Below are positions 2,618 through 24,182 of a DNA stretch of 34,409 nt, piece after piece; position 1 is the first letter of the stretch, and each line of letters begins with the position of its first letter. A program made the translations under genes and the position numbers. The notes beneath the pieces were generated by a model. The model did no database searches and was not told where the DNA came from. It worked only from the letters and a program-made list of their open reading frames with translations. This DNA comes from Candidatus Bathyarchaeota archaeon (GTDB taxonomy: Archaea > Thermoproteota > Bathyarchaeia > Bathyarchaeales > Bathycorpusculaceae), in assembly GCA_030626685.1 (NCBI GenBank), contig DAOUTL010000001.1, forward strand, positions 1-34,409, given 5' to 3'.

Positions 2618-3421
2618 TCAAGCAAACATTGCCGTAAAATTAATTCTCATCTCATCGATCATTTGTTCTAAAGATGGTGTTGGTTCTGAACTTAGCCTTG
2701 TGAGTCCTATTCGCAGGAATGCTTCCAGAGTCTTGATGATACCTTCGGGAAAGAATTGTTCTACATCATGGAATGTTATTTCTTTGGTCTTACACTTTTT
2801 AATGAAAAATTCTTTGGTTCTTTCAACATTAATATCACCAACCTTCAAAAGCTTCCACACATCGTAGTAATCTCTGATTCTTTTCCTTTCAAGAATCGAC
2901 CTCATCTTCTCCGCCAAGATGTTCTCAAGAGTGTATGTGAGGACGCTAAATTCTGGGTAATCGTATGCTTTGGGAGCTTTAACTTTTCTAACATCACCGA
3001 TGAAGCCTTCTTTCGAAACCTCTATCTTGATCGTGTTCTTGCCTAGCAGACCAGTGTATTGTACCCTAACCTGTAAGTAACTTGGATTTATGAAGGGTTT
3101 GTCTTTGACGTTCAGAAGCAACCCACCACTTGCCTTCTCGACGATACCAGAGAGTTCCTCTATTAATTTAATGGAAATATTTTCCAAGTTAGAACGTTCG
3201 GAGATCGTGAAATCCAAGTCTTCCGAAAGTCTCCAACCCGAAGGAAAGTAAACCTTTGATAGGGCAGTTCCGCCCTTAAAGACGAGTTTATCGGAAAGTG
3301 AACTCGAAGAGATTCCGAAGAGAATCCAGCCAATGGCATAATCTTTTTCTATTAGGTCCAGTGCTAATTTTCTCTCCCTGGATATCCTTCTCAGTTCAGG
3401 TAGCGGAATCATCTTGTCCAC
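2618..3421 (-). CDS. abiEii: AbiEii/AbiGii-family nucleotidyltransferase toxin
   Basis: 267 aa. N-terminal signature IEKDYAIGWIL...LVFKGGTALSKVYF...RLSEDLDFT is typical of DUF1814/AbiEii. Overlaps the upstream partner by 13 nt. Confidence 0.85.
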   Translation of the reverse strand: MDKMIPLPELRRISRERKLALDLIEKDYAIGWILFGISSSSLSDKLVFKGGTALSKVYFPSGWRLSEDLDFTISERSNLENISIKLIEELSGIVEKASGGLLLNVKDKPFINPSYLQVRVQYTGLLGKNTIKIEVSKEGFIGDVRKVKAPKAYDYPEFSVLTYTLENILAEKMRSILERKRIRDYYDVWKLLKVGDINVERTKEFFIKKCKTKEITFHDVEQFFPEGIIKTLEAFLRIGLTRLSSEPTPSLEQMIDEMRINFTAMFA

Positions 3422-4803
3422 TGTTCAGGATCTATTTTTATGTTCACACGTAACTTCCATCTCTCTTTAATCTTACCTCTTTTAGGAAGCTTAGGGTCTA
3501 AGCACGAGTATCCCTTTGAAATTTTAAGTCCAGTCAATAAACCATCGTATTCATGGAGTCCTAGTTTCTCTAACAGGTAGCCAAGTCTTTTTATTATCGT
3601 TCTGTTTCCCATTTTCTCCGCCATGTCCACGATTTTCTTGAAGTCCAAGTTTTCGTGTTCAAAGTAGATGGCCTTCGCAACTTCCTCTATCCCCACACAG
3701 TGTTCGGGATGGTCCAAGCAGTCAACTATTGTCTTTTCTGGAGTTGATATCTTGACAGGGATGTTCTCGATCTTGACCTCGGTGGTGCCGAACATCTTCC
3801 TCTCGGGAACTGTTACAAAGATGAATTCTACATTGAGAATTTTTTTTCTGTTCCTTGGTTTTGTTGTCGTTATGTAGACTGCAGGAGGGGTCTGCTCAGT
3901 GAGTCCGTGATAGTTCAACGCGCTCCAATGGCTTATGTAGTAAGGCCTGACCATATGCGATGCTATCATGAAGCTGTGGACAGTATAACTTCTTGCTCCC
4001 AACTCACCAGCTTCCAAGGGAGCTATCATGTACAATCCCTTCTTTATCTTTAGAATCCAGTTCTTTTTGGAGAGGTTGTACAGAAGACTTTTAGGGTTTT
4101 TATCATATTCTTTGACATCTTCAAGAGTAAAGATTCCTTTACCCCTGTAGCTGAGGTCTGATAGGATTCTCGCCTCTCTTGCAGAAAGACTTTTCCTCCC
4201 CGCTTCTTTTAATTCTACGACTCCTATCTCTTTAGGAGCAATTGGCTCAATTTTAACATCGATCCCGTATTCTTTTTTTAACTTCGGCAATTCATCCCTT
4301 ATTCTTTTTATCTCAGGTATTTTTTCAGCTACTGGCATCAATACAAATGTTTTGCTGTTCTCTGTGGTTAAGTAATAGATTGAACGTGCATATTTCGTTA
4401 ATATCGGGATAACCGTTCTATTCAAAGGCCTTTTTAGCTTGGGGTGGGGAATTTGCGTTAAATCGTCTGTACAAAGAATTCTCTTATATTCGATGTTATA
4501 GAGCCTACATGCTTCCTTTGCCTCTTCTCTCATTTCAGGTGAAAGTACCATACATCTTATCGAGGACGGATCTAACCCCTTTTCCTTGGACAATAAAAAT
4601 CTATATTTGATTACCTGGTCGAAGATGTCAAATGAAACAGGAACGCTCTTTATCTCAATGATCAAATATCTTTTGTTTCTATCCAGAAATAGCAAGTCTA
4701 TCTTAGAATCATTAATCGCTACTTCTTTTCCAATCCTCTCTAACCCTTCCTCTATTAATCCTGGATACTTTGAAAGCACCTCTTCAATAACGCTTTCTTT
4801 CAT
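3409..4803 (-). CDS. AbiEi-like antitoxin/regulator fused to an N-terminal NucS/DUF91-like PD-(D/E)xK nuclease domain
   Basis: 464 aa. The N-terminus LSKYPGLIEEGLERIGKEVAINDSKIDLLFLDRNKRYLIIEIKS...VIKY resembles the DUF91/NucS core. The C-terminal half (FTLEDVKEY...KKGLYMIAPLEAG...YYISHWSALNYHGLTEQ...VYITT) resembles AbiEi. Confidence 0.75.
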   Translation of the reverse strand: MKESVIEEVLSKYPGLIEEGLERIGKEVAINDSKIDLLFLDRNKRYLIIEIKSVPVSFDIFDQVIKYRFLLSKEKGLDPSSIRCMVLSPEMREEAKEACRLYNIEYKRILCTDDLTQIPHPKLKRPLNRTVIPILTKYARSIYYLTTENSKTFVLMPVAEKIPEIKRIRDELPKLKKEYGIDVKIEPIAPKEIGVVELKEAGRKSLSAREARILSDLSYRGKGIFTLEDVKEYDKNPKSLLYNLSKKNWILKIKKGLYMIAPLEAGELGARSYTVHSFMIASHMVRPYYISHWSALNYHGLTEQTPPAVYITTTKPRNRKKILNVEFIFVTVPERKMFGTTEVKIENIPVKISTPEKTIVDCLDHPEHCVGIEEVAKAIYFEHENLDFKKIVDMAEKMGNRTIIKRLGYLLEKLGLHEYDGLLTGLKISKGYSCLDPKLPKRGKIKERWKLRVNIKIDPEQWTR

Positions 4804-6752: not shown

Positions 6753-7064
6753 TTAGAGGTTGTGTGCGAACGCGAGTTGTATTAGGTTGTTGTAGACGAC
6801 GGCTACGTATAGGCTCACTAAGGATAGCAGTAGGATTTCAAGCAGTCTTTTGGCTTTTTTGAAGTTGCGTTTTCTGCAGTATGCGTACGTTGGAATCCAC
6901 GTCGTTGCGAGTATTATTGGAGCTGAGATTTTTCCTTGAAGGTTTTGCGGGTTGTACAGGGGGTTTAGCTCTGTTGCTCCTTGGCTTAGTCCGTAGATGG
7001 TTGTCGCCGCGTCAGCCAGGTTCAGCATAAAAAGGGTTGCTAGGAGGCAGAGGTATTTCCTCAA
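6753..7064 (-). CDS. small multi-pass membrane protein, DUF5658-like
   Basis: 103 aa. LNLADAATTIYGLSQGATELNPL motif, hydrophobic segments. 4-nt overlap with the upstream gene. Confidence 0.6.
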   Translation of the reverse strand: MRKYLCLLATLFMLNLADAATTIYGLSQGATELNPLYNPQNLQGKISAPIILATTWIPTYAYCRKRNFKKAKRLLEILLLSLVSLYVAVVYNNLIQLAFAHNL

Positions 7065-7339
7065 CCTTCCTCACCTGTGAACTGCGGAATTTCTGGTACG
7101 GTGTAGTTGCCCAGGTCTGAAGGATCGTAGTTGTAGTTTGGATCTTGAAACTTTTTCGCCACATCCCACGCGCGGTCCAAGAAGTTCAGGGTGTCTGTCA
7201 TTATTTCCTCGAACTGTGTGTTCAGTTCTTCCGTTTGGCTTTGAGTAGTGGCCGAAAGCAGTATTCCGTTTACGCCTAGACTTATTGTTGTGGTTAGCAG
7301 CATTGCAGTTAGCAGCATCCCGACTAGAACGGTTTTCAA
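7061..7339 (-). CDS. small secreted or membrane-anchored protein
   Basis: 92 aa. TTG start 7 nt after a GGAGG Shine-Dalgarno (SD) sequence. N-terminal hydrophobic signal MKTVLVGMLLTAMLLTTTISLG. Confidence 0.55.
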   Translation of the reverse strand: MKTVLVGMLLTAMLLTTTISLGVNGILLSATTQSQTEELNTQFEEIMTDTLNFLDRAWDVAKKFQDPNYNYDPSDLGNYTVPEIPQFTGEEG

Positions 7340-7346
7340 ATTTCAT

Positions 7347-7500
7347 CCTCCTTTCTAAGCCTTCTCCTTTCTCTTCTCTTCGTTTCAGTTGAGGGCGTCC
7401 GTTCGCGGGTCCCTACAAGTCGTACCCGCCTGACGCCTTAACTGTCAATTTACAGTTGTTTTTTCTTATAAAAACTACGTTTCCAACCTGAGAATATTAC
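7347..7500 (-). promoter_or_regulatory. promoter (TTTTTATAAG) plus conserved structured 5' leader, copy 1
   Basis: Plus-strand block 7465-7500 matches 15860-15895 at 33 of 36 positions. Nested stems GGCGUC/GACGCC and GCGGGU/ACCCGC lie at 7394-7437. A GA-rich tract (35-40 nt) containing the SD follows. Confidence 0.55.
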
Positions 7501-8587: not shown

Positions 8588-8992
8588 TTAGAGTGGGCTG
8601 GCAGTTTTTAGCAGCTCCTTTATCTTCTTTATAAACTTCTCAGCGTTATCTACTATTGTGCTGACCTCCCCTTCTCCGTAGCTTGCATATACATCATAGG
8701 TGCTTGCCTGCCTCATCTCGAATGCTTTGCTTAAATGCCTTCCAAACTCCTTTTCCAATAGGCCGGTTTTGATAATTTCCCTTCCTAAAAGTTCCCTTAA
8801 ACCTTTGTGTGTTTTAGGAGGGCTAACTCCTTTTGAAGCCAAGATTGCGTGGGAGGCGTGAAACATGGCGTAATATGCGTTGTTTATGGCGGACCTTAGC
8901 CTCAGGTGTGTTAAGCATAGTCTGGCATCTTTAAGGAATTCATCTGCCAGTTTTAAACACTTTTTCACGTATTGTTTTGAAGGTTCCATCAT
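8588..8992 (-). CDS. hepT: HEPN-domain toxin
   Basis: 134 aa. AINNAYYAMFHASHAILASKGVSPPKTHKGL is a HEPN helix pattern. Downstream of the MNT gene. Confidence 0.85.
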   Translation of the reverse strand: MMEPSKQYVKKCLKLADEFLKDARLCLTHLRLRSAINNAYYAMFHASHAILASKGVSPPKTHKGLRELLGREIIKTGLLEKEFGRHLSKAFEMRQASTYDVYASYGEGEVSTIVDNAEKFIKKIKELLKTASPL

Positions 8993-9326
8993 CGTATAAA
9001 ATCACGCCTTCTTTCAAAATTGCGAAGATGAATGGTGAGCCTACTTTAATTCTGTGTTCAAATTCGTCTGTTGTGAGGTGGATGGGCATTATGAAGGTTT
9101 CAAAATCGTTCTCAAAGTCGATTTCATAGCCTACATCTGAAACTTTCTCTCCGACCTCATTATCCTTGCCTATCACCAGAACGTCAATGTCGCTATCCTT
9201 TGTTGCCTCTCCTCTGGCTACCGAGCCGTAGATGACCATTGATTGGATTCTGTCGCCCAACTCATTTAACACTCTACTTCTGAAAGCTGTCAGAGCCCTC
9301 TCATATCTTGTTTGAAGCTTCAGCAT
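8940..9326 (-). CDS. mntA: minimal nucleotidyltransferase (MNT) antitoxin
   Basis: 128 aa. VIYGSVARGEATKDSDIDVLVI is the GS...DxD polymerase-beta-type motif. Confidence 0.88.
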   Translation of the reverse strand: MLKLQTRYERALTAFRSRVLNELGDRIQSMVIYGSVARGEATKDSDIDVLVIGKDNEVGEKVSDVGYEIDFENDFETFIMPIHLTTDEFEHRIKVGSPFIFAILKEGVILYDDGTFKTIREKVFKTGR

Positions 9327-9442: not shown

Positions 9443-11500
9443 TCAACTCCTCTTTCTACTTCTCCTTATGAGGACTGCTGCTGCGGAGGCCGCTGCGATG
9501 ATGGCTATTATTGCGCCGGCTACGTAGCCTATCGGTATGGCAGGTGCAAGTGGTGCTACAACCGTGAACGTTGCTTCGAGGTCGTCAACTTTGACCGTGT
9601 AAGTTCCCGGCTCCGTCTTTGTCACTGTGAATGTTACGGTGGTTGATTCTCCGCCGGTTAGAGTTACCGTCTCAGTAGACTCAACTGCTCCGTTAACTGT
9701 TAAGGTCGCAGTGTATGATCCTTCAAGGTCTCCCACATTCGTTACCATAGCGGTGATGGTTACCGTCTCGCCGGGTCCCACTTCAGCTGGGGTGACTGAT
9801 AGGTTTGAAAGCTCAAATTCTGCTGGTAGGGCGTACTCTGTTACGGTTAAAGTATAGGTGCAGCTGTGGGTTTTCTCTCCTCCAGTGCCCGTGATGGTGA
9901 TTGAGTAGGTTCCGGTTGGTGTGGTTGAACTGGTTGAGATTGTCAGCGTCGAGTTGAAGCTTGGTGTTCCTGAAGATGGGCTGAAGTTTGCGGTCGTCCC
10001 GCTCGGAAGTCCGCTCGCCGATAGGCTGACGGTTTCGGTGAATCCTGCGACTGGTGAGACAGAGACTGTAGCGGTTGTGGATTCTCCTTGCACGATTGAT
10101 CCGGAGGTTGGGTCTACGCTTATGCTGAAGTCGGGAGCTAATGCGGTGCCTGATACCGCGAACACGGAAAGCCCTGGGGAAACTGCGGAGAAGTAAACGT
10201 ACGTGGCGTCTTCGTCGACTTTTTCAGTTGGGATGGAAGTCCATTCGCCCGCCGCGTACCGGTTCAGAGTTATGGTTGTCTCGTCTATTTCGTGCTCTGT
10301 GATCCAGGATTTTTCCACTTTGAACGTTATTGTGACGGATTCTATGTCAGCGTCCGTTATGTTTTGGGCGACCACGTTCAGGTGTTTGTAGGATATTCCG
10401 GGGGCTGCTATCTCTATTCCCAGTGGTCTCTCGGTGAGTTGCTGCACGGTTATCAGCACGTTCTCAACCGTGTTTTTGACGCTTATCGTGAGTTCGGTTA
10501 TTACAGTGTTTTCTACTTCTACTGTGGCGTTTTCTGCCGGCGTTATCGATGGAATCTCGTACGGCGGGGACTGTTTCTCTATGTTTTCCGGCGGTATCTC
10601 CGTGTATATTCCTGTAACTGTCCTCGTCTCGTCAGCTGCTAGTGTCACGCTCTCGGCTGCCGGGGTTAAGTAGCCTAGGGCGTCACCGAAAGAAATTGTG
10701 TATGTGCCCGCGTCCAACAATTTGGTTTGGGGGGCAATTCCCCATAGGATGTTATCCACGTAAACATTTGCCTTTATCGGGGTTGTGTCGACGGTTAGGG
10801 TTGCCTTTCCTGGTGGTGGCGGGGGTGGAGGGGCTAGTGTGAAGCTTAGGGAAGCGGTGTCGCCGATGTTATGTACGAAGTCTACGGCTCTCACGTAGAA
10901 GGTGTGTGAACCGTAAGCTATGGGTATGGGGGAAGTCCACGAGGTAGCTGTGGTGGATATCCAGCTTCCGTCGTCTATTCGAGTTTGGTAGCTTTCAACT
11001 CCTAGGTTGTCTGTTGCTGGGTTCCAAGCGAATGTGGGAGTGGTGTCGCTGTCAGGGGTTAGCTTGCGTAGATTTGTTGGAGTCGATGGGGATATGTTGT
11101 CTGTGACTGCTAGGTTTAGCTGAGTTGATTCTCCATGCTCGAATGTGTATGACGTGGCGCATATTTCGGCTACTAAGAAGTCTATTGTGTCACCGTCTTC
11201 TCCGCCTTCCTTCTCCGTAGTTTCGGGGTCGTCTCCTGGAACCATGAAAAGCGGGTCGTAGCCGTATCTTCCGTCCTTGGTTGTGGTTGAAGCGTACGTG
11301 ACCTCGCCTATTTTAGCTTCAACTGTTGTTCCGTCTGGTGCAGGGATTGTTCCTATAGGTCCGGAAACTTGAACGTATCCATAAAACTGATGGGGTATTG
11401 TGGGTACAGCCAGCACGTTGGCACACGTTAACATTAGCGTGGCCAACAACACTGCTATAAGCGGTTTTGCCACATTTTTTTTCAATTTCATATTATTCAC
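9443..11500 (-). CDS. multidomain cell-surface protein (PEGA-like, PGF-pre-PGF-like, Ig-like, CARDB-like) with C-terminal transmembrane (TM) anchor
   Basis: 685 aa. Signal peptide, PPPPPPP linker, PEGA-like TLTVDTTPIKANVYVDNILWG. PGF-pre-PGF-like NITDADIESVTITFKV...YVYFSAVSPGLSVFAV. CARDB-like VTNVGDLEGSYTATLTVNG. Terminal hydrophobic helix followed by RRSRKRS. Confidence 0.85.
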   Translation of the reverse strand: MNNMKLKKNVAKPLIAVLLATLMLTCANVLAVPTIPHQFYGYVQVSGPIGTIPAPDGTTVEAKIGEVTYASTTTKDGRYGYDPLFMVPGDDPETTEKEGGEDGDTIDFLVAEICATSYTFEHGESTQLNLAVTDNISPSTPTNLRKLTPDSDTTPTFAWNPATDNLGVESYQTRIDDGSWISTTATSWTSPIPIAYGSHTFYVRAVDFVHNIGDTASLSFTLAPPPPPPPGKATLTVDTTPIKANVYVDNILWGIAPQTKLLDAGTYTISFGDALGYLTPAAESVTLAADETRTVTGIYTEIPPENIEKQSPPYEIPSITPAENATVEVENTVITELTISVKNTVENVLITVQQLTERPLGIEIAAPGISYKHLNVVAQNITDADIESVTITFKVEKSWITEHEIDETTITLNRYAAGEWTSIPTEKVDEDATYVYFSAVSPGLSVFAVSGTALAPDFSISVDPTSGSIVQGESTTATVSVSPVAGFTETVSLSASGLPSGTTANFSPSSGTPSFNSTLTISTSSTTPTGTYSITITGTGGEKTHSCTYTLTVTEYALPAEFELSNLSVTPAEVGPGETVTITAMVTNVGDLEGSYTATLTVNGAVESTETVTLTGGESTTVTFTVTKTEPGTYTVKVDDLEATFTVVAPLAPAIPIGYVAGAIIAIIAAASAAAVLIRRSRKRS

Positions 11501-11520: not shown

Positions 11521-11529
11521 AAAAAAAAA
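11521..11529 (-). terminator. oligo-T tract between the two large genes (possible partial archaeal terminator)
   Basis: Nine consecutive T on the minus strand, 25 nt after the stop of the 1393-aa gene. AGGTGA and the ATG of the next gene follow. Confidence 0.3.
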
Positions 11530-11553
11530 GAGGGAGATCATTTAGTTCGCTTC

Positions 11554-14500
11554 CTAAGGAACTATTACGCCTTCCTCGGAAACGTAGATCCAGTAGCCAT
11601 AGCCAGGCATCATCGTCAATGGATCCCTAACCCATCCATAGGTCGGGATGTAGGTCAGCCTTCTAATGTAGTCAACGCCTCTCAAGTAGTACGTGCTGTT
11701 CATTTCTTGGAGCGCTTTGAAGCCCATTAGGTTCCAGCCTGTGTAGACTTTGTATGTTGGGGGTATGTTTGGTCCTGGTATGTTCTCGTAGCCGTATAGG
11801 CTGAAGGTGACGGTTTCAGTGGTTTTCGTTTTAACCCAGTATCCGAGTCCATCCCTTATGGTTGTTAGGTTGCGTGGTGCTTCGGGAGCGGGGTTGTAGA
11901 CGCTCCAGCTCTTGGATTCGGGGTTGTAGCTCCAGACGACATCAACATCATCTGAGACTGGTTGGAGCACATGGGTTATGCTTGCGTTTTCAGGTATCAG
12001 AGGTAGTGACATTAGGTTCCATTGTGGATAGAGGGTTAGGTTGTAGCTGAGCCTGTCTGAGCCTGTGTATGGGGAGCCAACATATTCGTCTTCGTATACG
12101 TATGCCCATATGATGTTAGTGTTCACGTTTACGCCTGTGTTTCTGCATCTGTGCCATGAGCCGTCTTTGAAGTAGTATAGGCCTAAAATGACTTCGTTTA
12201 GGCCTGCGACTTCCTCATCTGTGTAGTGAAGCTCAATGTATATTGGCCAGTTGACAGCGGATTTGTTTCCAACGGCGATTTCAACGTATTTTGGAAGCAT
12301 CTCATCCGGCTTAAAAGCTTCTGGATGAGGATTGGCAGTGTGGTTGGCAACGATGACTGATGTTGGAGACGTCACGTTCACCGTTATCACGACGTCAGCC
12401 ACATCAGTAGCATTGACAACATTGGGTTCTGTTATGTTTGTTACGGGCTCAACCTTCTGTTCTGACGGCGGTTGTGGATATCCTTCGGGAACTATCCATG
12501 GAGCGTAGGTGACCTCGCCTAGGGTTGAATTGTCCAGCTTGTGGTAGATCAAAGCCTCTATCTCATCGAAAGTGTAGACACCCCAATCGTTGAGGGTGGC
12601 GTTAAGAGTTCCCGTCGGGTTTTCCTCACCTAACTCGATTGCAATACCGTTTCGCGAGAAATTGTTGAAGTGAACCTGAAGACCGCTTATGTTTCCGCTG
12701 TAGACGTATATGCCTTGGTAATTATTTACGAAGTCGTTGTGAACCACTTTCCCACTAATCAAACCATTATTTTCGTTGGTAAAGTAGAGCCCCGCGCCAT
12801 GGATATCCTCCATTCCCACTGGACTGCCTTCAAAGATATTGTTTTCCACCACTACATTTTCAGCGTTTCTAATTTCGATAGCAGCCCAGAACCATTCGTG
12901 ACCTCCGTTGTTTTCAAACTTGTTGTTGCGAACCACGAAGTTGTCGGTGAAGTTGTCTCTGTTGCCATAAACGACCGATGATCCCCTGTTATCATGAATG
13001 TAGTTGTTCTCAAATGTGACTGTGGAAAGACTCGGCCCGCTAGGACCGGCTTCTAGGGTGCCCTCCCCGATATATAGGGTTCCCCAATCCGTATAGCCAG
13101 TTACTTCGTTGTTGGTAAAGGTGAAATCGCTGGCAACAGGGTTAATATAGAAGCACATGCCAACGCTGCCTTGACCGTCAAAGATGTTGTTGTCGAAAGT
13201 GAGGTCATAAAGATAGCCCTCCCCGATATGACCAATAGTGACTCCGTTACCGTATGTTCCAGCGTTTCCTTGGATGGTGAAATTAAGGATCGACACACCT
13301 ACAATGTCACCAGCACTAGTATCGAACTTTATCCCATTAGTGATAACTGTGCCAGTAGGGCTTTCCCCTTGCAACGTCAGGCTCTTGTCAATTACAACAT
13401 GCTCGTCATACGTCCCCGCCGCCACATTGATTGTGTCGCCAGGGCATGAGGCGTCAATGCCGCCTTGGATGGTGTCGGAGTAGGCGAGGACGCTATCAAA
13501 GTGTTCAACGGTGACAAACTGCCTCTCTGGAGTGGTGGTTGAGGTGGCATACCAAGGTGTGAAAGTTACGTTATCGCTTACTGCGTCTCCCTTGCCATCC
13601 GAATTCCTTGTCTCATGATATGGCCCACTTGCGTCACCCCACCAGTTCAGGGTGGCGTTGAGCGTGTACGTCTCATTAAGATTGCAGACAGCTCCTTTGT
13701 ATGTGCTTTCTTCTTCATCATTAGTCCATTCGAGACCTAAGTTGTTGACGAAGTTGTTGTAGTGGGCTACATTACCGATTCCCATCTGTTTGCCACAGCG
13801 TATGGCGAAATCATTGTCGTGTATGTCATTGTACTGAATTATGTGGTTTGCTGCACCAAACTCAATCTTGACACCAGTGTGGCAGTCGTGAATGTTGTTA
13901 TACTCTGCAATTGTTCCACTGGAATCTTTGGCAAAGCAAATAGCCATCTGGACATTGTAGATTTCGTTATGTGCGATTATTACGTCTGGTCCGGCTTCAT
14001 AAACTCCTATACCAGTGCTCAGATATTGCTCTCCGATAAATCCCAAGTCGGTTATGGTGTTGTAAGTGGCTGAGCCCTTCGCATCTCTAAGGAAGTATAT
14101 GCCATTAGGAACTTGCTTAGTTAATGCCCCTGGACCGTTAATCACGTTGTGGTGATAGTCCGCTGTCAGTGTGTCGCCTACTGCGTATATGCCTGCCCTG
14201 TTGTAACCTTGAACAGTACACTGTGTTACTTCTACCGTGGAAACAGATGATATAGCAGAAGCCCATATACCTGCGGTACGACAACTAAGTTCTGAGTTTC
14301 CAATGACTGTCAAGCCTTTTATTGTGCCACTGGTCTCAAGGTAAGCGAGACCCGCAACCCAACCATCTACTCCAATTCCTGCAGGTGCTTCCGCGATTAA
14401 CGAACCATTTATTTGCAGGTCATTTATGGTAACTTCACCAGTCGCGTTAACAAAGACTATTGCCGCCATCTGCTTGGTACCTATTCCAAGCCATGGTGTA

Positions 14501-15735
14501 GTCTTTACCGTCGTTAGGGTTCCATCAGATGGTTGAATTATGGTGCTTTCGCCTTCTCCCTCCAGTGTAAGTGCCCTATCGATAACTACTTGCTCATCGT
14601 ATGTACCCGCGTGAACCAGTATCGTGTCGCCTGGGTTAGCGGCGTCTATGGCGGATTGAATTGTGTAGTATCCCTTTGTATCTATGGTTACTGAAGCTGG
14701 TGTAGCTGCTAACGCTTGAATTGCCTCTGAATCGATTTCGGAGTACTCGGTTGGAGAACACAGCCATCCGCCGTTTTCTTCCTGATTCGATACGAGCCAG
14801 TGTGCTCCTTTCCTAGCAGTTTCCAATTCACCAGCTGCATTCAATCCCACAATCACATAAGCTGTGTCTTGGACAATGCCCTCTGGATTCTCTCCTGAGC
14901 CCCAGCTTCCATTGTCATTCTGACTGTCTGTCAGGTTGCTGATTATGGCTGCAATTTCGGTCGCGTAAGTTGTTGGGTCTACTACTTGGAACATCTCTAG
15001 ACCTTTGCCCCATCCGATGTACCTGTAATCGTCGGTTCCGTCTATTTTGGTTAGATTGCTTTGTATGACGCTGGCCATGTTTTCTGCCCATGCTGTGTCA
15101 TCACAGGTAAGGGCTGCCAATGCGTAGTCTGCAGATTGCCATATGGCACCGCCGTGGCTGCTGCCGAAAGCGCTGTACAGATAATTGTACATATTCGTTT
15201 GGTTTCCGTCACCGTAGTTTTCGCCACGGTTTTCTGTTACCCAGTTCCATGCGTCTATAGCGTAGTCTTTGTATGTTGTATTTCCAGATATTTCTGCGAA
15301 TCGTACTAGAAATCTGTAGTCGAATGAGTGGCCAAACCGATAGCTGTCCCAGCCGTAGTAGAAGTCTCCTTCGCTTGCGTTTCCATACATTATGAAGTCT
15401 GCTACATTCTTTGCAGTTTCAAAGTAGCTTGTGTTTCCGGTTAGTTCATATGCGTCTAAGAGCCCTAAAGCCGTCACACCATAGAGGTTTGTTGAACTAT
15501 TAGCTGCACTGTGCTCGGTTAGACCTGTAACATTCCAATCCCAGCCGTAGTCCGTATTTGATTGAAGGGCTATCAACCTATCTGCTGCGTTAGCAACTAC
15601 GGTCTTATACTCCTTGACAGTCGGCGAGTTCGCCTCTACAGATGGTATAGGCATAACAATTAGAAGCATTGACAGTATGAATAGTGCTATCAGTAGTGTC
15701 GTTATTGTCTTCGCATTAACTCTTCTATGAAACAT
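11554..15735 (-). CDS. giant secreted protein: prenyltransferase/terpene-cyclase-like alpha/alpha toroid repeats, two right-handed beta-helix modules and a C-terminal WNL...GYW repeat domain
   Basis: 1393 aa. N-terminal signal/TM. NDNGSWGSG...NQEENGGW repeats. Two beta-helix entry motifs: TIQSAIDAANPGDTILVHAGTYDEQVVIDRALTLEGEG and TIQGGIDASCPGDTINVAAGTYDEHVVIDKSLTLQGES. Confidence 0.85.
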   Translation of the reverse strand: MFHRRVNAKTITTLLIALFILSMLLIVMPIPSVEANSPTVKEYKTVVANAADRLIALQSNTDYGWDWNVTGLTEHSAANSSTNLYGVTALGLLDAYELTGNTSYFETAKNVADFIMYGNASEGDFYYGWDSYRFGHSFDYRFLVRFAEISGNTTYKDYAIDAWNWVTENRGENYGDGNQTNMYNYLYSAFGSSHGGAIWQSADYALAALTCDDTAWAENMASVIQSNLTKIDGTDDYRYIGWGKGLEMFQVVDPTTYATEIAAIISNLTDSQNDNGSWGSGENPEGIVQDTAYVIVGLNAAGELETARKGAHWLVSNQEENGGWLCSPTEYSEIDSEAIQALAATPASVTIDTKGYYTIQSAIDAANPGDTILVHAGTYDEQVVIDRALTLEGEGESTIIQPSDGTLTTVKTTPWLGIGTKQMAAIVFVNATGEVTINDLQINGSLIAEAPAGIGVDGWVAGLAYLETSGTIKGLTVIGNSELSCRTAGIWASAISSVSTVEVTQCTVQGYNRAGIYAVGDTLTADYHHNVINGPGALTKQVPNGIYFLRDAKGSATYNTITDLGFIGEQYLSTGIGVYEAGPDVIIAHNEIYNVQMAICFAKDSSGTIAEYNNIHDCHTGVKIEFGAANHIIQYNDIHDNDFAIRCGKQMGIGNVAHYNNFVNNLGLEWTNDEEESTYKGAVCNLNETYTLNATLNWWGDASGPYHETRNSDGKGDAVSDNVTFTPWYATSTTTPERQFVTVEHFDSVLAYSDTIQGGIDASCPGDTINVAAGTYDEHVVIDKSLTLQGESPTGTVITNGIKFDTSAGDIVGVSILNFTIQGNAGTYGNGVTIGHIGEGYLYDLTFDNNIFDGQGSVGMCFYINPVASDFTFTNNEVTGYTDWGTLYIGEGTLEAGPSGPSLSTVTFENNYIHDNRGSSVVYGNRDNFTDNFVVRNNKFENNGGHEWFWAAIEIRNAENVVVENNIFEGSPVGMEDIHGAGLYFTNENNGLISGKVVHNDFVNNYQGIYVYSGNISGLQVHFNNFSRNGIAIELGEENPTGTLNATLNDWGVYTFDEIEALIYHKLDNSTLGEVTYAPWIVPEGYPQPPSEQKVEPVTNITEPNVVNATDVADVVITVNVTSPTSVIVANHTANPHPEAFKPDEMLPKYVEIAVGNKSAVNWPIYIELHYTDEEVAGLNEVILGLYYFKDGSWHRCRNTGVNVNTNIIWAYVYEDEYVGSPYTGSDRLSYNLTLYPQWNLMSLPLIPENASITHVLQPVSDDVDVVWSYNPESKSWSVYNPAPEAPRNLTTIRDGLGYWVKTKTTETVTFSLYGYENIPGPNIPPTYKVYTGWNLMGFKALQEMNSTYYLRGVDYIRRLTYIPTYGWVRDPLTMMPGYGYWIYVSEEGVIVP

Positions 15736-15895
15736 TCTTTCTTTTCTCCTCCTTTCTCCTCTTTTTATCAGTTAAGGGCATCCTTTTCACGGGTCCTTAT
15801 AGATCCCTACAAGTCATACCCGCTGGACACCCCAAACATTATTTTATTGTTACGTTTTGCTTATAAAAACTACGTTTCCAACTCGAGAATATTCC
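15736..15895 (-). promoter_or_regulatory. promoter (TTTTTATAAG) plus conserved structured 5' leader, copy 2
   Basis: Same TATA block at 15860-15882. Stems GGGUGUCC/GGAUGCCC (plus-strand 15825-15832 and 15776-15783) and GCGGGU/ACCCGU. GA-rich SD tract. Confidence 0.55.
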
Positions 15896-16028: not shown

Positions 16029-16107
16029 CCATACACACAGAAACAACACACCCACCCAGACTCGCCACAAACACCAAGCGACAAGACCAAACCAAATGAC
16101 AATCCTT
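16029..16107 (+). repeat. AC-rich intergenic repeat, copy R1
   Basis: The 46 nt at 16029-16074 are identical to 17515-17560. Similarity continues to about 16107. Confidence 0.75.
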
Positions 16108-17424: not shown

Positions 17425-17598
17425 TTCTCTCCCTTTTTTATTTTCTCCTTTTTTTAAACAAAGACAGCAAATCGTCTAAGCCGCTCACACCACAATCATC
17501 ACGCAAACAATTTTCCATACACACAGAAACAACACACCCACCCAGACTCGCCACAAACACTACAACACAAACACCAAGCGGTAAGACAGGCAATCCTT
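17425..17598 (+). repeat. terminator plus AC-rich repeat, copy R2
   Basis: T-tracts at 17431-17455. AAGACAGCAAATCGTCT...CCGCTCAC block at 17461-17495. A 46-nt exact match to R1 at 17515-17560, then a 14-nt tandem insertion. Confidence 0.75.
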
Positions 17599-18415: not shown

Positions 18416-18430
18416 ACATAACCAAAATCC

Positions 18431-18541
18431 CAAATCTTTTATTCTGCGAAGTTGCAAACGCGTTAAGGTATAAGCCTTACTATGGAAAATTGCAGTCGAA
18501 AGCTTACCCAATACAGCTCCTATGAACAACGCCGCAAATCA
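18431..18541 (+). pseudogene. orphan 3' fragment of a truncated PIN gene (duplicate of 22517-22627)
   Basis: About 90 percent identity over 111 nt. Encodes ...LFCEVANALRYKPYYGKLQSKAYPIQLL. Confidence 0.7.
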
Positions 18542-18559: not shown

Positions 18560-18680
18560 CATCCCTTTTCTTTTTCCCATTTTTTAACGAAAACGAAGAC
18601 AGCAAATCGTCTGAACCGCTCACGCCACAACTTCCTATATGCACAGAAACAAGGCACTCACACAAACTCACATTCACCTT
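18560..18680 (+). repeat. terminator plus AC-rich repeat, copy R3 (diverged)
   Basis: T-tracts, then GAAGACAGCAAATCGTCTGAACCGCTCACGCCACAA at 18603-18638, which matches 17460-17495 with 4 mismatches. Confidence 0.6.
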
Positions 18681-22405: not shown

Positions 22406-22611
22406 TGGTGTTAGACTCCTCAGTTGCGGTTAAGTGGTTCAGCAAAGAGGTAAAATCGGATGAAGCCATCAAGCTCATGGACTCTCACGTGAAAGGCCCC
22501 ATAGAGCTATCAGTCTCAGATCTGTTATTCTGCGAGGTTGCAAACGCATTAAGGTATAAGCCTTACTATGAAAAATTGCAGCCGAAAGCTTACCCAATCC
22601 AGCTCCTATGA
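22384..22611 (+). pseudogene. vapC: truncated PIN-domain toxin gene
   Basis: IVVLDSSVAVKWF...LLFCEVANALRYKP, then unrelated sequence and a stop at 75 aa. The last two PIN acidic motifs are missing. The 3' part is duplicated at 18431-18541. Confidence 0.75.
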
Positions 22612-22936
22612 ACATCACCGGCAATCAGGTATAAGCTTTACACTTCCCTTTCTCTTAGCCTCCATGTATTCCTTGACGGCTTCAACCTCGTCTTTTAAGG
22701 GCTCTTCCAACCCCACAAGCCTTTCCTCAACAAGCTCCTCTAACCTTTCAACTTTTTCACGAACAAGCCCTACGGAAAACAGAAACTATACAACAAAAAG
22801 GTTATGAAAACCAACTTGGAAAGGCTTGCACATTTAATAAAAGTCTGCGGCTTGCTGATGCAAACGAAAGTTTATCTGTTCTGGTCAAAAACCGATTATC
22901 GAAAGTAACGTTTCCAAGCTACAAAAAATGGTATCA

Positions 22937-23127: not shown

Positions 23128-23142
23128 ACATCGCCAAATAGG

Positions 23143-23163
23143 GTTCAAATCCCACGAAGCCCA
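23143..23163 (+). other. tRNA 3'-end fragment GTTCAAATCCCAC-GAAGCCC-A
   Basis: The first 17 nt are identical to 24166-24182. Confidence 0.5.
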
Positions 23164-24023: not shown

Positions 24024-24182
24024 AAAAGTGAAAGGTGGGTTCAAATCTCGCCCTAGAATATGCCTAAATTAAACTACTTTAATTCAGTCATATCAGAGAG
24101 TTCAAATCTCTCCGGGCCCGTCATGTTCACTTTAATCTATAATCATGTGGCACGTGCCACACCGCGTTCAAATCCCACGAAG
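24024..24182 (+). other. cluster of three tRNA T-arm/3'-end-like fragments
   Basis: GTTCAAATC at 24039, 24100 and 24166. 24096-24120 is a perfect T-arm GAGAG-TTCAAAT-CTCTC followed by CGGGCCC-G. Palindrome GTGGCACGTGCCAC at 24147-24160. Confidence 0.5.

Follow-up and report, generated by a model that had tools for sequence, protein, structure and literature searches.

A promoter–leader module with a candidate kink-turn hairpin upstream of two envelope gene sets in a Bathyarchaeia genome

The DNA analysed here, i.e. the whole 34,409-nt contig of an NCBI metagenome-assembled genome of Candidatus Bathyarchaeia ('the window' in the following), carries on its minus strand two homologous promoter–leader regions, one in front of the genes for a 92-aa protein and a DUF5658 membrane protein, the other in front of the gene for a 1393-aa envelope protein. 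In each leader, folding predicts a single extended hairpin and, behind it, a purine tract that stays unpaired and bears the Shine–Dalgarno (SD) sequence, and at the sequence level the inner hairpin of both copies matches the kink-turn (k-turn) consensus (GCGGG, UAY, GA...GA, CCCGY) exactly. We read this arrangement, tentatively and with a confidence that stays somewhat short of even, as a lineage-specific promoter–leader module present in two copies in one Bathyarchaeia genome, with a 5' hairpin that most likely acts in cis by binding a protein of the L7Ae type or by stabilising the mRNA.

Two homologous regions before unrelated genes

By alignment, positions 7498-7340 of the minus strand (copy 1) are homologous to 15893-15736 (copy 2). 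Upstream, the homology sets in abruptly at an AATATT (7498 and 15893, respectively), and downstream it extends to the start codons, TTG 7339 and ATG 15735. An earlier note on this DNA had described homologous regions in front of unrelated coding sequences, with a transcription factor B recognition element (BRE)/TATA stretch and a leader core in common, and in all this it was right: the coding sequences are no more alike than background, and the 20-mer GGAAACGTAGTTTTTATAAG, which comprises BRE and TATA (7484-7465 and 15879-15860), as well as the leader core GCGGGTAYGACTTGTAGGGA (7429-7410 and 15823-15804) each occur exactly twice in the window, on the minus strand, where none would be expected from shuffles or by chance, respectively.

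Conservation between the copies comes in blocks (all segment identities stem from one aligner). It amounts to 41% in the 40 nt upstream, reaches 32/34 identical positions (94%) in the promoter block, falls to 15/28 (54%) in the spacer between TATA and hairpin, is high again in the 5' half (24/28, 86%) and the 3' half (21/26, 81%) of the hairpin, i.e. 45/54 over the whole structure, and then declines to 60% in the purine tract (with indels) and to 48% in the first 60 nt of coding sequence; promoter plus hairpin compared with the spacer give a Fisher p of 3e-4. Since unrelated flanks show 41-48% identity in the same alignment, the spacer is at background level, and with a conserved block on either side of it, promoter and hairpin seem to have been kept while unconstrained positions were randomised. 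At the level of sequence, this pattern argues for constraint on promoter and hairpin rather than for a young and uniform duplicate, and the contrast between these counts speaks against the fresh duplication that the earlier note had raised as an alternative.

In both copies the end of the TATA element lies 27-28 nt from P1, the outer stem of the hairpin. At the usual archaeal TATA-to-start distance, transcription would thus begin 3-6 nt before P1, at about A7443 in copy 1 and G15837 in copy 2, and the mRNA would open almost directly with the hairpin. Leaders counted from these putative starts would measure about 104 nt (copy 1) and 102 nt (copy 2), i.e. they would be alike despite the insertion that distinguishes copy 2.

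The leader hairpin and its kink-turn

On the sense strand of the downstream genes, both copies form a stable extended hairpin, which bears out the structured leader proposed earlier. For the leader of copy 2, the minimum-energy fold coincides with the centroid (-29.2 kcal/mol, z = -3.2); P1 and the inner hairpin together reach -21.1 kcal/mol in copy 1 (z = -3.07) and -24.7 kcal/mol in copy 2 (z = -4.10), with 0/200 shuffles as stable in either case. An alternative fold that would sequester the SD is present neither in minimum-energy nor in centroid structures. The outer stems, too, are as previously described, GGCGUC/GACGCC in copy 1 and GGGUGUCC/GGAUGCCC in copy 2, and the two C-to-U changes between them are real, producing U.G and G.U pairs in P1 (column pairs 13/64 and 14/63).

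In a model-guided alignment of the two copies, standard pairs occupy 39/42 pair cells, a proportion that drops to 27-48% when the 3' partners are slid by 1-3 columns. Seven of the 21 pairs differ on one side only and in a wobble-compatible manner, three are broken in one copy, and 7/8 transitions in paired columns retain pairing in the sense RNA (binomial p = 0.035). What the earlier note called covariation is therefore a modest wobble bias.

The inner part of the hairpin is a candidate k-turn. A canonical (C) helix of 5 bp, GCGGG/CCCGC in copy 1 and GCGGG/CCCGU in copy 2, with a Watson–Crick G:C pair at -1b:-1n, is followed by a 3-nt bulge and GA, while on the other strand a GA directly precedes the C helix, so that the sequence is compatible with tandem G.A/A.G pairs. 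The non-canonical (NC) helix beyond consists of a C-G and a U.G pair with a UGUA loop in copy 1 and of 7 bp with a GGAU loop in copy 2; within the motif, the copies differ at bulge position L3 (C/U) alone. Both belong to the class with G:C at -1b:-1n and C:G at 3b:3n, and k-turns of this class do not fold with metal ions alone but do fold on binding of L7Ae (Huang et al. 2019, PMC6298567). All archaea possess L7Ae, and experiments have found it to bind k-turns in the 5' untranslated regions (UTRs) of several archaeal mRNAs (Daume et al. 2017, PMC5539422). With an exact consensus match in both copies, the inner hairpin is a candidate L7Ae site, and it is this textbook k-turn, missed by the earlier note, that makes protein binding the specific favoured option. 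A second k-turn in the internal loop was also considered and discarded, as there is no GA at the required position.

Copy 2 contains 10-11 extra nt, which the earlier note had taken for an 11-nt insertion confined to the loop. Instead, these nucleotides (UCUAUAAGGA, 15803-15794) pair with the preceding sequence, providing the 3' arm of the new 7-bp NC helix together with a GA of their own beside the C stem. Viewed as DNA, the arms of the inverted repeats lie further apart in copy 2 than in copy 1 (23 versus 13 nt and 43 versus 32 nt), i.e. by about one helical turn; viewed as RNA, the indel extends the helix and retains GA beside the C stem. As it shifts arm spacing by ~10 bp yet lengthens the RNA helix, an RNA element is favoured over an operator for a dimeric protein. 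Tandem duplication is a plausible origin of the extra sequence. That UCUAUAAGGA differs from the preceding CUUGUAGGGA by transitions only was initially taken as proof of such a duplication with subsequent wobble-to-Watson–Crick repair, an argument that has been withdrawn because CUUGUAGG is self-complementary in its purine/pyrimidine pattern and any complementary arm would look alike.

Downstream of the hairpin, the CCCTYAACTGA and the purine-rich, GGAGG-bearing tract reported earlier are present in both copies; the tract, previously put at 35-40 nt, is actually longer in copy 1 (45 nt) and shorter in copy 2 (32 nt). In the predicted fold the SD is unpaired, 30-45 nt downstream of the k-turn hairpin. 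Archaeal homologues of the 1393-aa protein on the loci L107 and L108 have short purine-rich GGAGAAGGGAGAAGG leaders without a hairpin, so that an open purine/SD tract seems to be common to genes of this kind, to which this lineage seems to have added the hairpin.

Table 1. Positions of the two promoter–leader copies and the genes behind them in the window
Feature	Positions	Strand	Description
Copy 1 promoter block	7465..7498	-	AATATTCTCAGGTTGGAAACGTAGTTTTTATAAG; BRE/TATA portion 7484-7465
Copy 1 spacer, TATA to hairpin	7438..7464	-	A/T-rich TAAAT at about -10
Copy 1 extended hairpin	7386..7444	-	P0 CAGUU/AACUG; P1 GGCGUC/GACGCC (7437-7432 with 7399-7394); internal loop AG / GAACG; inner hairpin; minimum-energy fold
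Copy 1 candidate kink-turn/k-loop	7405..7429	-	GCGGG UAC GA CU-UGUA-GG GA CCCGC; from sequence and k-turn descriptor
Copy 1 purine-rich tract	7340..7385	-	predicted unpaired; SD GGAGG 7351-7347, 7 nt before TTG 7339
Copy 1 gene set	6753..7339	-	92-aa protein (7061-7339) and DUF5658 membrane protein (6753-7064), 4-nt overlap
Copy 2 promoter block	15860..15893	-	AATATTCTCGAGTTGGAAACGTAGTTTTTATAAG
Copy 2 extended hairpin	15771..15837	-	GUU/AAC; P1 GGGGUGUCC/GGAUGCCCU (15833-15825 with 15783-15775); internal loop A / GAAAA; inner hairpin
Copy 2 candidate kink-turn	15789..15823	-	GCGGG UAU GA CUUGUAG-GGAU-CUAUAAG GA CCCGU; from sequence and k-turn descriptor
Copy 2 purine tract	15736..15770	-	AAAAAGAGGAGAAAGGAGGAGAAAAGAAAGAA (15767-15736), 32 consecutive purines; GGAGG 15752-15748
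Copy 2 gene	11554..15735	-	1393-aa protein; signal-peptide-like N-terminus, beta-helix, terpene-cyclase/TED-like domain; ATG 15735
Gene 3' of the 1393-aa gene	9443..11500	-	685-aa CARDB/PEGA surface protein

Distribution and competing interpretations

In the data searched, the element is restricted to one lineage. In the whole window, Rfam 15 gives 0 matches at gathering thresholds, and on both leaders there is only noise at E up to 10, in agreement with the earlier impression that no known family is involved. A covariance model (R1), built on the leaders of the two copies with 66 positions and 21 pairs, scores 88.3 bits on copy 1 and 75.3 bits on copy 2, with no further match in the rest of the window or in 1.23 Mb of DNA that comes from 76 related Bathyarchaeia genomes and other loci. 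An exact-pattern scan for GCGGGTAYGACTTGTAGGGA across 185,579 species genomes returned 0 matches, as did a pattern scan of viral contigs, and blastn against phages and plasmids gave none either. Scanning JGI metagenomes for the promoter plus the leader start likewise yielded 0 matches, in a collection that seems to be without this lineage, since the same pattern matches the window and the loci L001, L002 and L003 locally. The 76 Bathyarchaeia loci reached via synteny of the DNA ligase—the window enzyme (74-1753) is 58-87% identical to theirs, and their labels are nearly all Candidatus Bathyarchaeia/Bathyarchaeota—contain neither the DUF5658 operon nor the leader, and the regions upstream of homologues of the 1393-aa protein (L004-L009, L087, L088, L107, L108) are unrelated to it.

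A second metagenome scan, for the k-turn pattern, produced 18 matches, all chance and in unrelated G+C-rich DNA. A perfect k-turn-type hairpin, GCGGG UAC GA CUC-CUCG-GAG GA CCCGU, found via the search pattern only and not homologous to the window element, is located at 313-342 of L095 (also on L096, L097 and L104), a G+C-rich bacterial metagenome contig, where it sits on the GTG start of an open reading frame (ORF) with a lipoprotein-like signal peptide, just 3' of a terminator. Among the homologues of the 1393-aa protein, L004 (3150-3460) and L009 (1560-1860) have their own conserved upstream region of ~300 nt, unrelated to the window leader, in which a terminator-like hairpin and a long G+C-rich inverted repeat are followed by a purine-rich SD; the neighbours on L004 look bacterial (MutS, DXS, YbeY), and the region may represent a further case of a structured leader before surface-protein genes.

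The 92-aa protein has a single cluster of homologues (61% identity), on L002, L109 and L110. Upstream of these genes, the promoter is found in the same register, AATATT-N14-GTAG-YTTTTATARG (AATATTTCCTTTTTAAACATGTAGCTTTTATAGG in L002, with 26 nt from the TATA end to the position of P1), and an A/T-rich -10 element and the first ~30 nt of the leader (GGTTTGGGTGTTCAGGCGGGATGAC) are kept as well, nearer to copy 2 than to copy 1; beyond this shared 5' part, the leaders run on for ~200 nt. L109 (7899-7911) and L110 (2311-2323, both on the minus strand) also match the k-loop core UGACUUGUAGGGA exactly over 13 nt, just 3' of the stop of a 404-aa gene and ~2 kb from the L002-type leader. This match was rejected as a further copy and treated as chance, having no flanking stem and a p of about 0.05 after sub-window correction.

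How might such a module operate? The conserved archaeal promoter (the AATATT...GTTGG block, BRE/TATA and an A/T-rich -10 element) would start transcription a few nt before the hairpin and, being common to both copies, would subject the two envelope gene sets to common transcriptional control. The first 60-70 nt of the mRNA would then fold into P0 and P1, with an asymmetric internal loop of the A / GAA type above them and, further up, a G+C-rich stem of 5 bp capped by the k-turn, whereas the following 32-45 nt of unpaired purine tract with the SD would keep the ribosome-binding site open. L7Ae or a paralogue would clamp the k-turn, and the resulting RNA–protein complex at the 5' end may shield the transcript or adjust its translation, for the two gene sets alike.

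A number of points weigh against this proposal. In L002, L109 and L110 the hairpin is lost: the bulge is 2 nt, AA stands for GA on the opposite strand and P1 has no partner; CCCGC has become CCCAT in L109 and L110; L002-type leaders fold no better than shuffles (z = -0.03 to -0.27), and the differences between L002 and L109 break predicted pairs. No other finding speaks as strongly against a conserved RNA family as this loss, which also keeps a role of positions +1 to +30 at the DNA level alive. All data searched contain two copies only, with which a regulatory role is no more than plausible, and these are just two paralogous sequences with 0 compensatory double changes among 21 pairs; moreover, the plus (antisense) strand of copy 1 folds equally well. 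Of the strand-specific covariation claimed in the earlier note, what stands is the preference of transitions for sense pairing, and its idea of a protein-binding element in cis, which the k-turn match has turned into the favoured option, has the small number of copies and the lack of compensatory change on its debit side. The k-turn itself was recognised after the fact, its bare hairpin descriptor has ~7 matches per 69 kb in shuffled sequence as compared with 11 observed in the window, and GA retention in copy 2 could follow automatically from tandem CUUGUAGGGA duplication or from deletion between two GGA repeats. In favour of the proposal, the combination of k-turn hairpin, outer stem of at least 5 bp and purine tract is found at these two sites only in 1.27 Mb of Bathyarchaeia DNA; two further matches to the composite architecture in the same 1.27 Mb look like chance (block shuffles ~0.4). 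Also against it, the distance between SD and k-turn makes the known mechanism of SD occlusion by L7Ae inapplicable, and with a start site deduced from TATA spacing, the hairpin would be truncated if transcription began inside P1.

A plain stabiliser hairpin at the 5' end, without a specific protein partner, would slow 5'-end-dependent decay, while the open purine/SD tract would make translation strong, in a cassette for high expression of abundant envelope proteins, with the k-turn being coincidental—a possible reading, if on the doubtful side. A stable hairpin beginning a few nt from the putative 5' end, a purine/SD tract predicted to be open, the purine-rich and hairpin-less leaders of L107 and L108 and a k-turn descriptor that is common by chance would all fit, but a stabiliser needs pairing only and leaves the invariant bulge and GA as well as the conserved loop-proximal sequence (24/28 in the 5' half) unexplained. 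It is unlikely, too, that conservation is exerted on the DNA, i.e. on a strong promoter and a transcription-factor operator over the start site, of which the RNA hairpin would be an inverted-repeat by-product. This would account for L002, L109 and L110 having conserved the promoter and the first ~30 nt (TAAAATA..GGTTTGGGTGTYCAGGCGGG.ATGAC) though not the 3' half of the hairpin, for the TATA-to-GGYGT distance, fixed at 26-28 nt in the leaders of copy 1, copy 2 and L002, and for the AATATT edge common to these three; yet it is at odds with a 3' half that is conserved between the copies (21/26), with wobble-only substitutions specific to the sense RNA and with a change in inverted-repeat spacing that a dimeric operator would hardly tolerate.

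That the leader structure has no function at all, being a neutral remnant of duplication or gene conversion of a promoter–leader cassette, we consider quite improbable. While a single genome with two copies, the absence of the element from 76 related Bathyarchaeia loci and a hairpin lost in the L002-type lineage are what a remnant would leave behind, it should have diverged uniformly, whereas spacer and flanks are at background and promoter and hairpin at 83-94%, and the substitutions in the stems avoid breaking pairs. Very improbable, and least expected of all, is a riboswitch that senses a metabolite or a separate small RNA of the box C/D, H/ACA or other k-turn type whose position upstream of the genes would be incidental, even though the leader is structured, some riboswitches also contain k-turns and a CUGA directly follows the hairpin. 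The riboswitch-like character suggested in the earlier note does not hold: there is a single hairpin with an internal loop of 1-2 / 5 nt and no multi-helix aptamer, the SD is free in the predicted fold, and the element has no Rfam match and is not conserved across taxa outside one lineage. There is also no guide-sized pseudouridylation pocket and no oligo-T terminator between hairpin and gene. A box C/D small RNA was rejected, as RUGAUGA is missing, the CUGA has no C-box partner and no snoRNA-type Rfam match was obtained, and so was an archaeal H/ACA small RNA, as the internal loop has 1-2 nt on its 5' and 5 nt on its 3' side and no ACA follows P1.

By analogy, then, the element would work most like an L7Ae-type k-turn leader and a 5' stabiliser hairpin combined. 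Known L7Ae k-turn leaders are the l7ae autoregulatory leader, that of nop5-fibrillarin and those of other Sulfolobus mRNAs (PMC5539422, PMC6298567), with which the window copies share an archaeal 5' leader hairpin, a candidate standard k-turn of the class predicted to require protein and a proposed action in cis. In contrast to these, the genes in the window encode secreted or envelope proteins rather than L7Ae or components of k-turn RNA–protein complexes, the bulge is UAY instead of GAU, the hairpins, which end at 7386 and 15771, do not overlap the SD (7351-7347 and 15752-15748), and instead of a weak stem-loop that occludes the SD only on L7Ae binding, there is a G+C-rich hairpin that is stable alone. 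As the window copies show neither the SD overlap nor the gene context nor the weak helices of the l7ae feedback-leader class, membership in that class was rejected. Bacterial 5'-end stabiliser stem-loops with SD-like purine tracts are found in ompA, aprE, cryIIIA (STAB-SD) and S-layer gene leaders. The window element resembles these in having a stable 5'-end hairpin, an open SD-rich purine tract and envelope or secreted proteins encoded downstream, but archaeal decay machinery differs and the window hairpin carries a conserved k-turn signature and an internal loop besides its pairing.

A further likeness concerns the selenocysteine insertion sequence (SECIS) of methanogens, which has a k-turn-like GAA/A internal loop between G-C clamps (PMC11881835). 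The window hairpins also have an asymmetric A / GAA-containing internal loop between G-C pairs, and SECIS elements can work in 5' UTRs. An archaeal SECIS was nevertheless rejected, since the loop of 1-2 versus 5 nt is larger than GAA/A and the downstream ORFs (7061-7339, 6753-7064 and 11554-15735) have no in-frame UGA and do not encode selenoproteins. K-turns are also architectural modules of bacterial SAM-I, T-box and c-di-GMP-II leaders and are bound by YbxF/YlxQ. Here, too, a k-turn resides inside a leader, but riboswitch and T-box leaders possess large and widely conserved aptamers, whereas the window k-turn tops a single hairpin without aptamer or expression platform in one lineage.

Genomic setting and implications

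The window sequence is also present in Logan SRR1971620 and JGI 3300031919, and the organism itself in JGI 3300035494 as well. In the gene set behind copy 1, the 92-aa protein has a signal-peptide-like N-terminus, and its TTG start at 7339 agrees with the homologue P0002 and with the genes called in two assemblies. An ATG at 7346-7344 on the minus strand, directly 3' of the SD, opens a 91-aa out-of-frame ORF (7071-7346) without signal peptide and may be a decoy or a competing start. Downstream of copy 2, the 1393-aa and 685-aa genes are both present, as in the operon that the earlier note had drawn. Oligo-T is a termination signal in archaea, and a T10 run (~11525-11534, minus strand) lies directly 3' of the stop of the 1393-aa gene and ahead of the 685-aa gene; an AGGTGA SD of its own precedes the latter, which probably starts at ATG 11491 and not at the listed GTG 11500. 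With the T10 run and a separate SD between them, co-transcription of the two genes is uncertain, and they may be two transcription units rather than one operon.

Around both envelope gene sets, the window is crowded with toxin–antitoxin and defence modules of the VapBC type, many AbrB/MazE–PIN pairs, a pair of HEPN and nucleotidyltransferase genes at 8588-9326 and AbiEi/AbiEii at 2618-4803, which gives it the appearance of a variable genomic island. A CA-rich intergenic repeat family on the plus strand (16029-16087, 17456-17587 and 18591-18680) is located between toxin–antitoxin-type genes, with a 46-nt block that is 100% identical (16029 versus 17515) and a 40-nt block that is 90% identical (17456 versus 18591); one of these repeats lies ~130 nt upstream of the copy 2 promoter. 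There is also an intergenic direct repeat of 114 nt with 89% identity (18428-18541 versus 22514-22627; ~150 nt alignable), which holds TTAAGGTATAAGCCTTA-type palindromes. Finally, GCCAnAnnGnGTTCAAATCCCACGAAG occurs twice (23133-23159 and 24156-24182) and resembles a tRNA T-arm and 3' end, while ARAGORN finds no tRNA in the window; the pair may be attachment-site remnants bordering an insertion of ~1 kb.

Bathyarchaeia are a major uncultured lineage of sediments and hot springs. Very few archaeal cis-regulatory mRNA elements are known, and to our knowledge none has been described for Bathyarchaeia. If the k-turn is not bound, what remains would be a promoter and 5' UTR of the usual sort, duplicated within one lineage and equipped with a stabilising hairpin. 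The 160-nt promoter–leader cassette is a candidate strong expression module. A more far-reaching idea, which we put forward as speculative and unlikely to hold as it stands, is that of a small post-transcriptional regulon of L7Ae or a paralogue of its family in Bathyarchaeia, in which k-turns at the 5' ends of envelope mRNAs, far from the SD, couple surface-protein synthesis to the free pool of a protein of the ribosome and of small nucleolar ribonucleoproteins. Such a regulon would act by mRNA protection or ribosome handover and not by SD occlusion, i.e. as a new mode of L7Ae-dependent control with non-ribosomal targets. If L7Ae does bind, its control would extend beyond l7ae and a few tested Sulfolobus mRNAs to envelope genes, with a geometry—at the 5' end and distant from the SD—that differs from the known occlusion of the SD.

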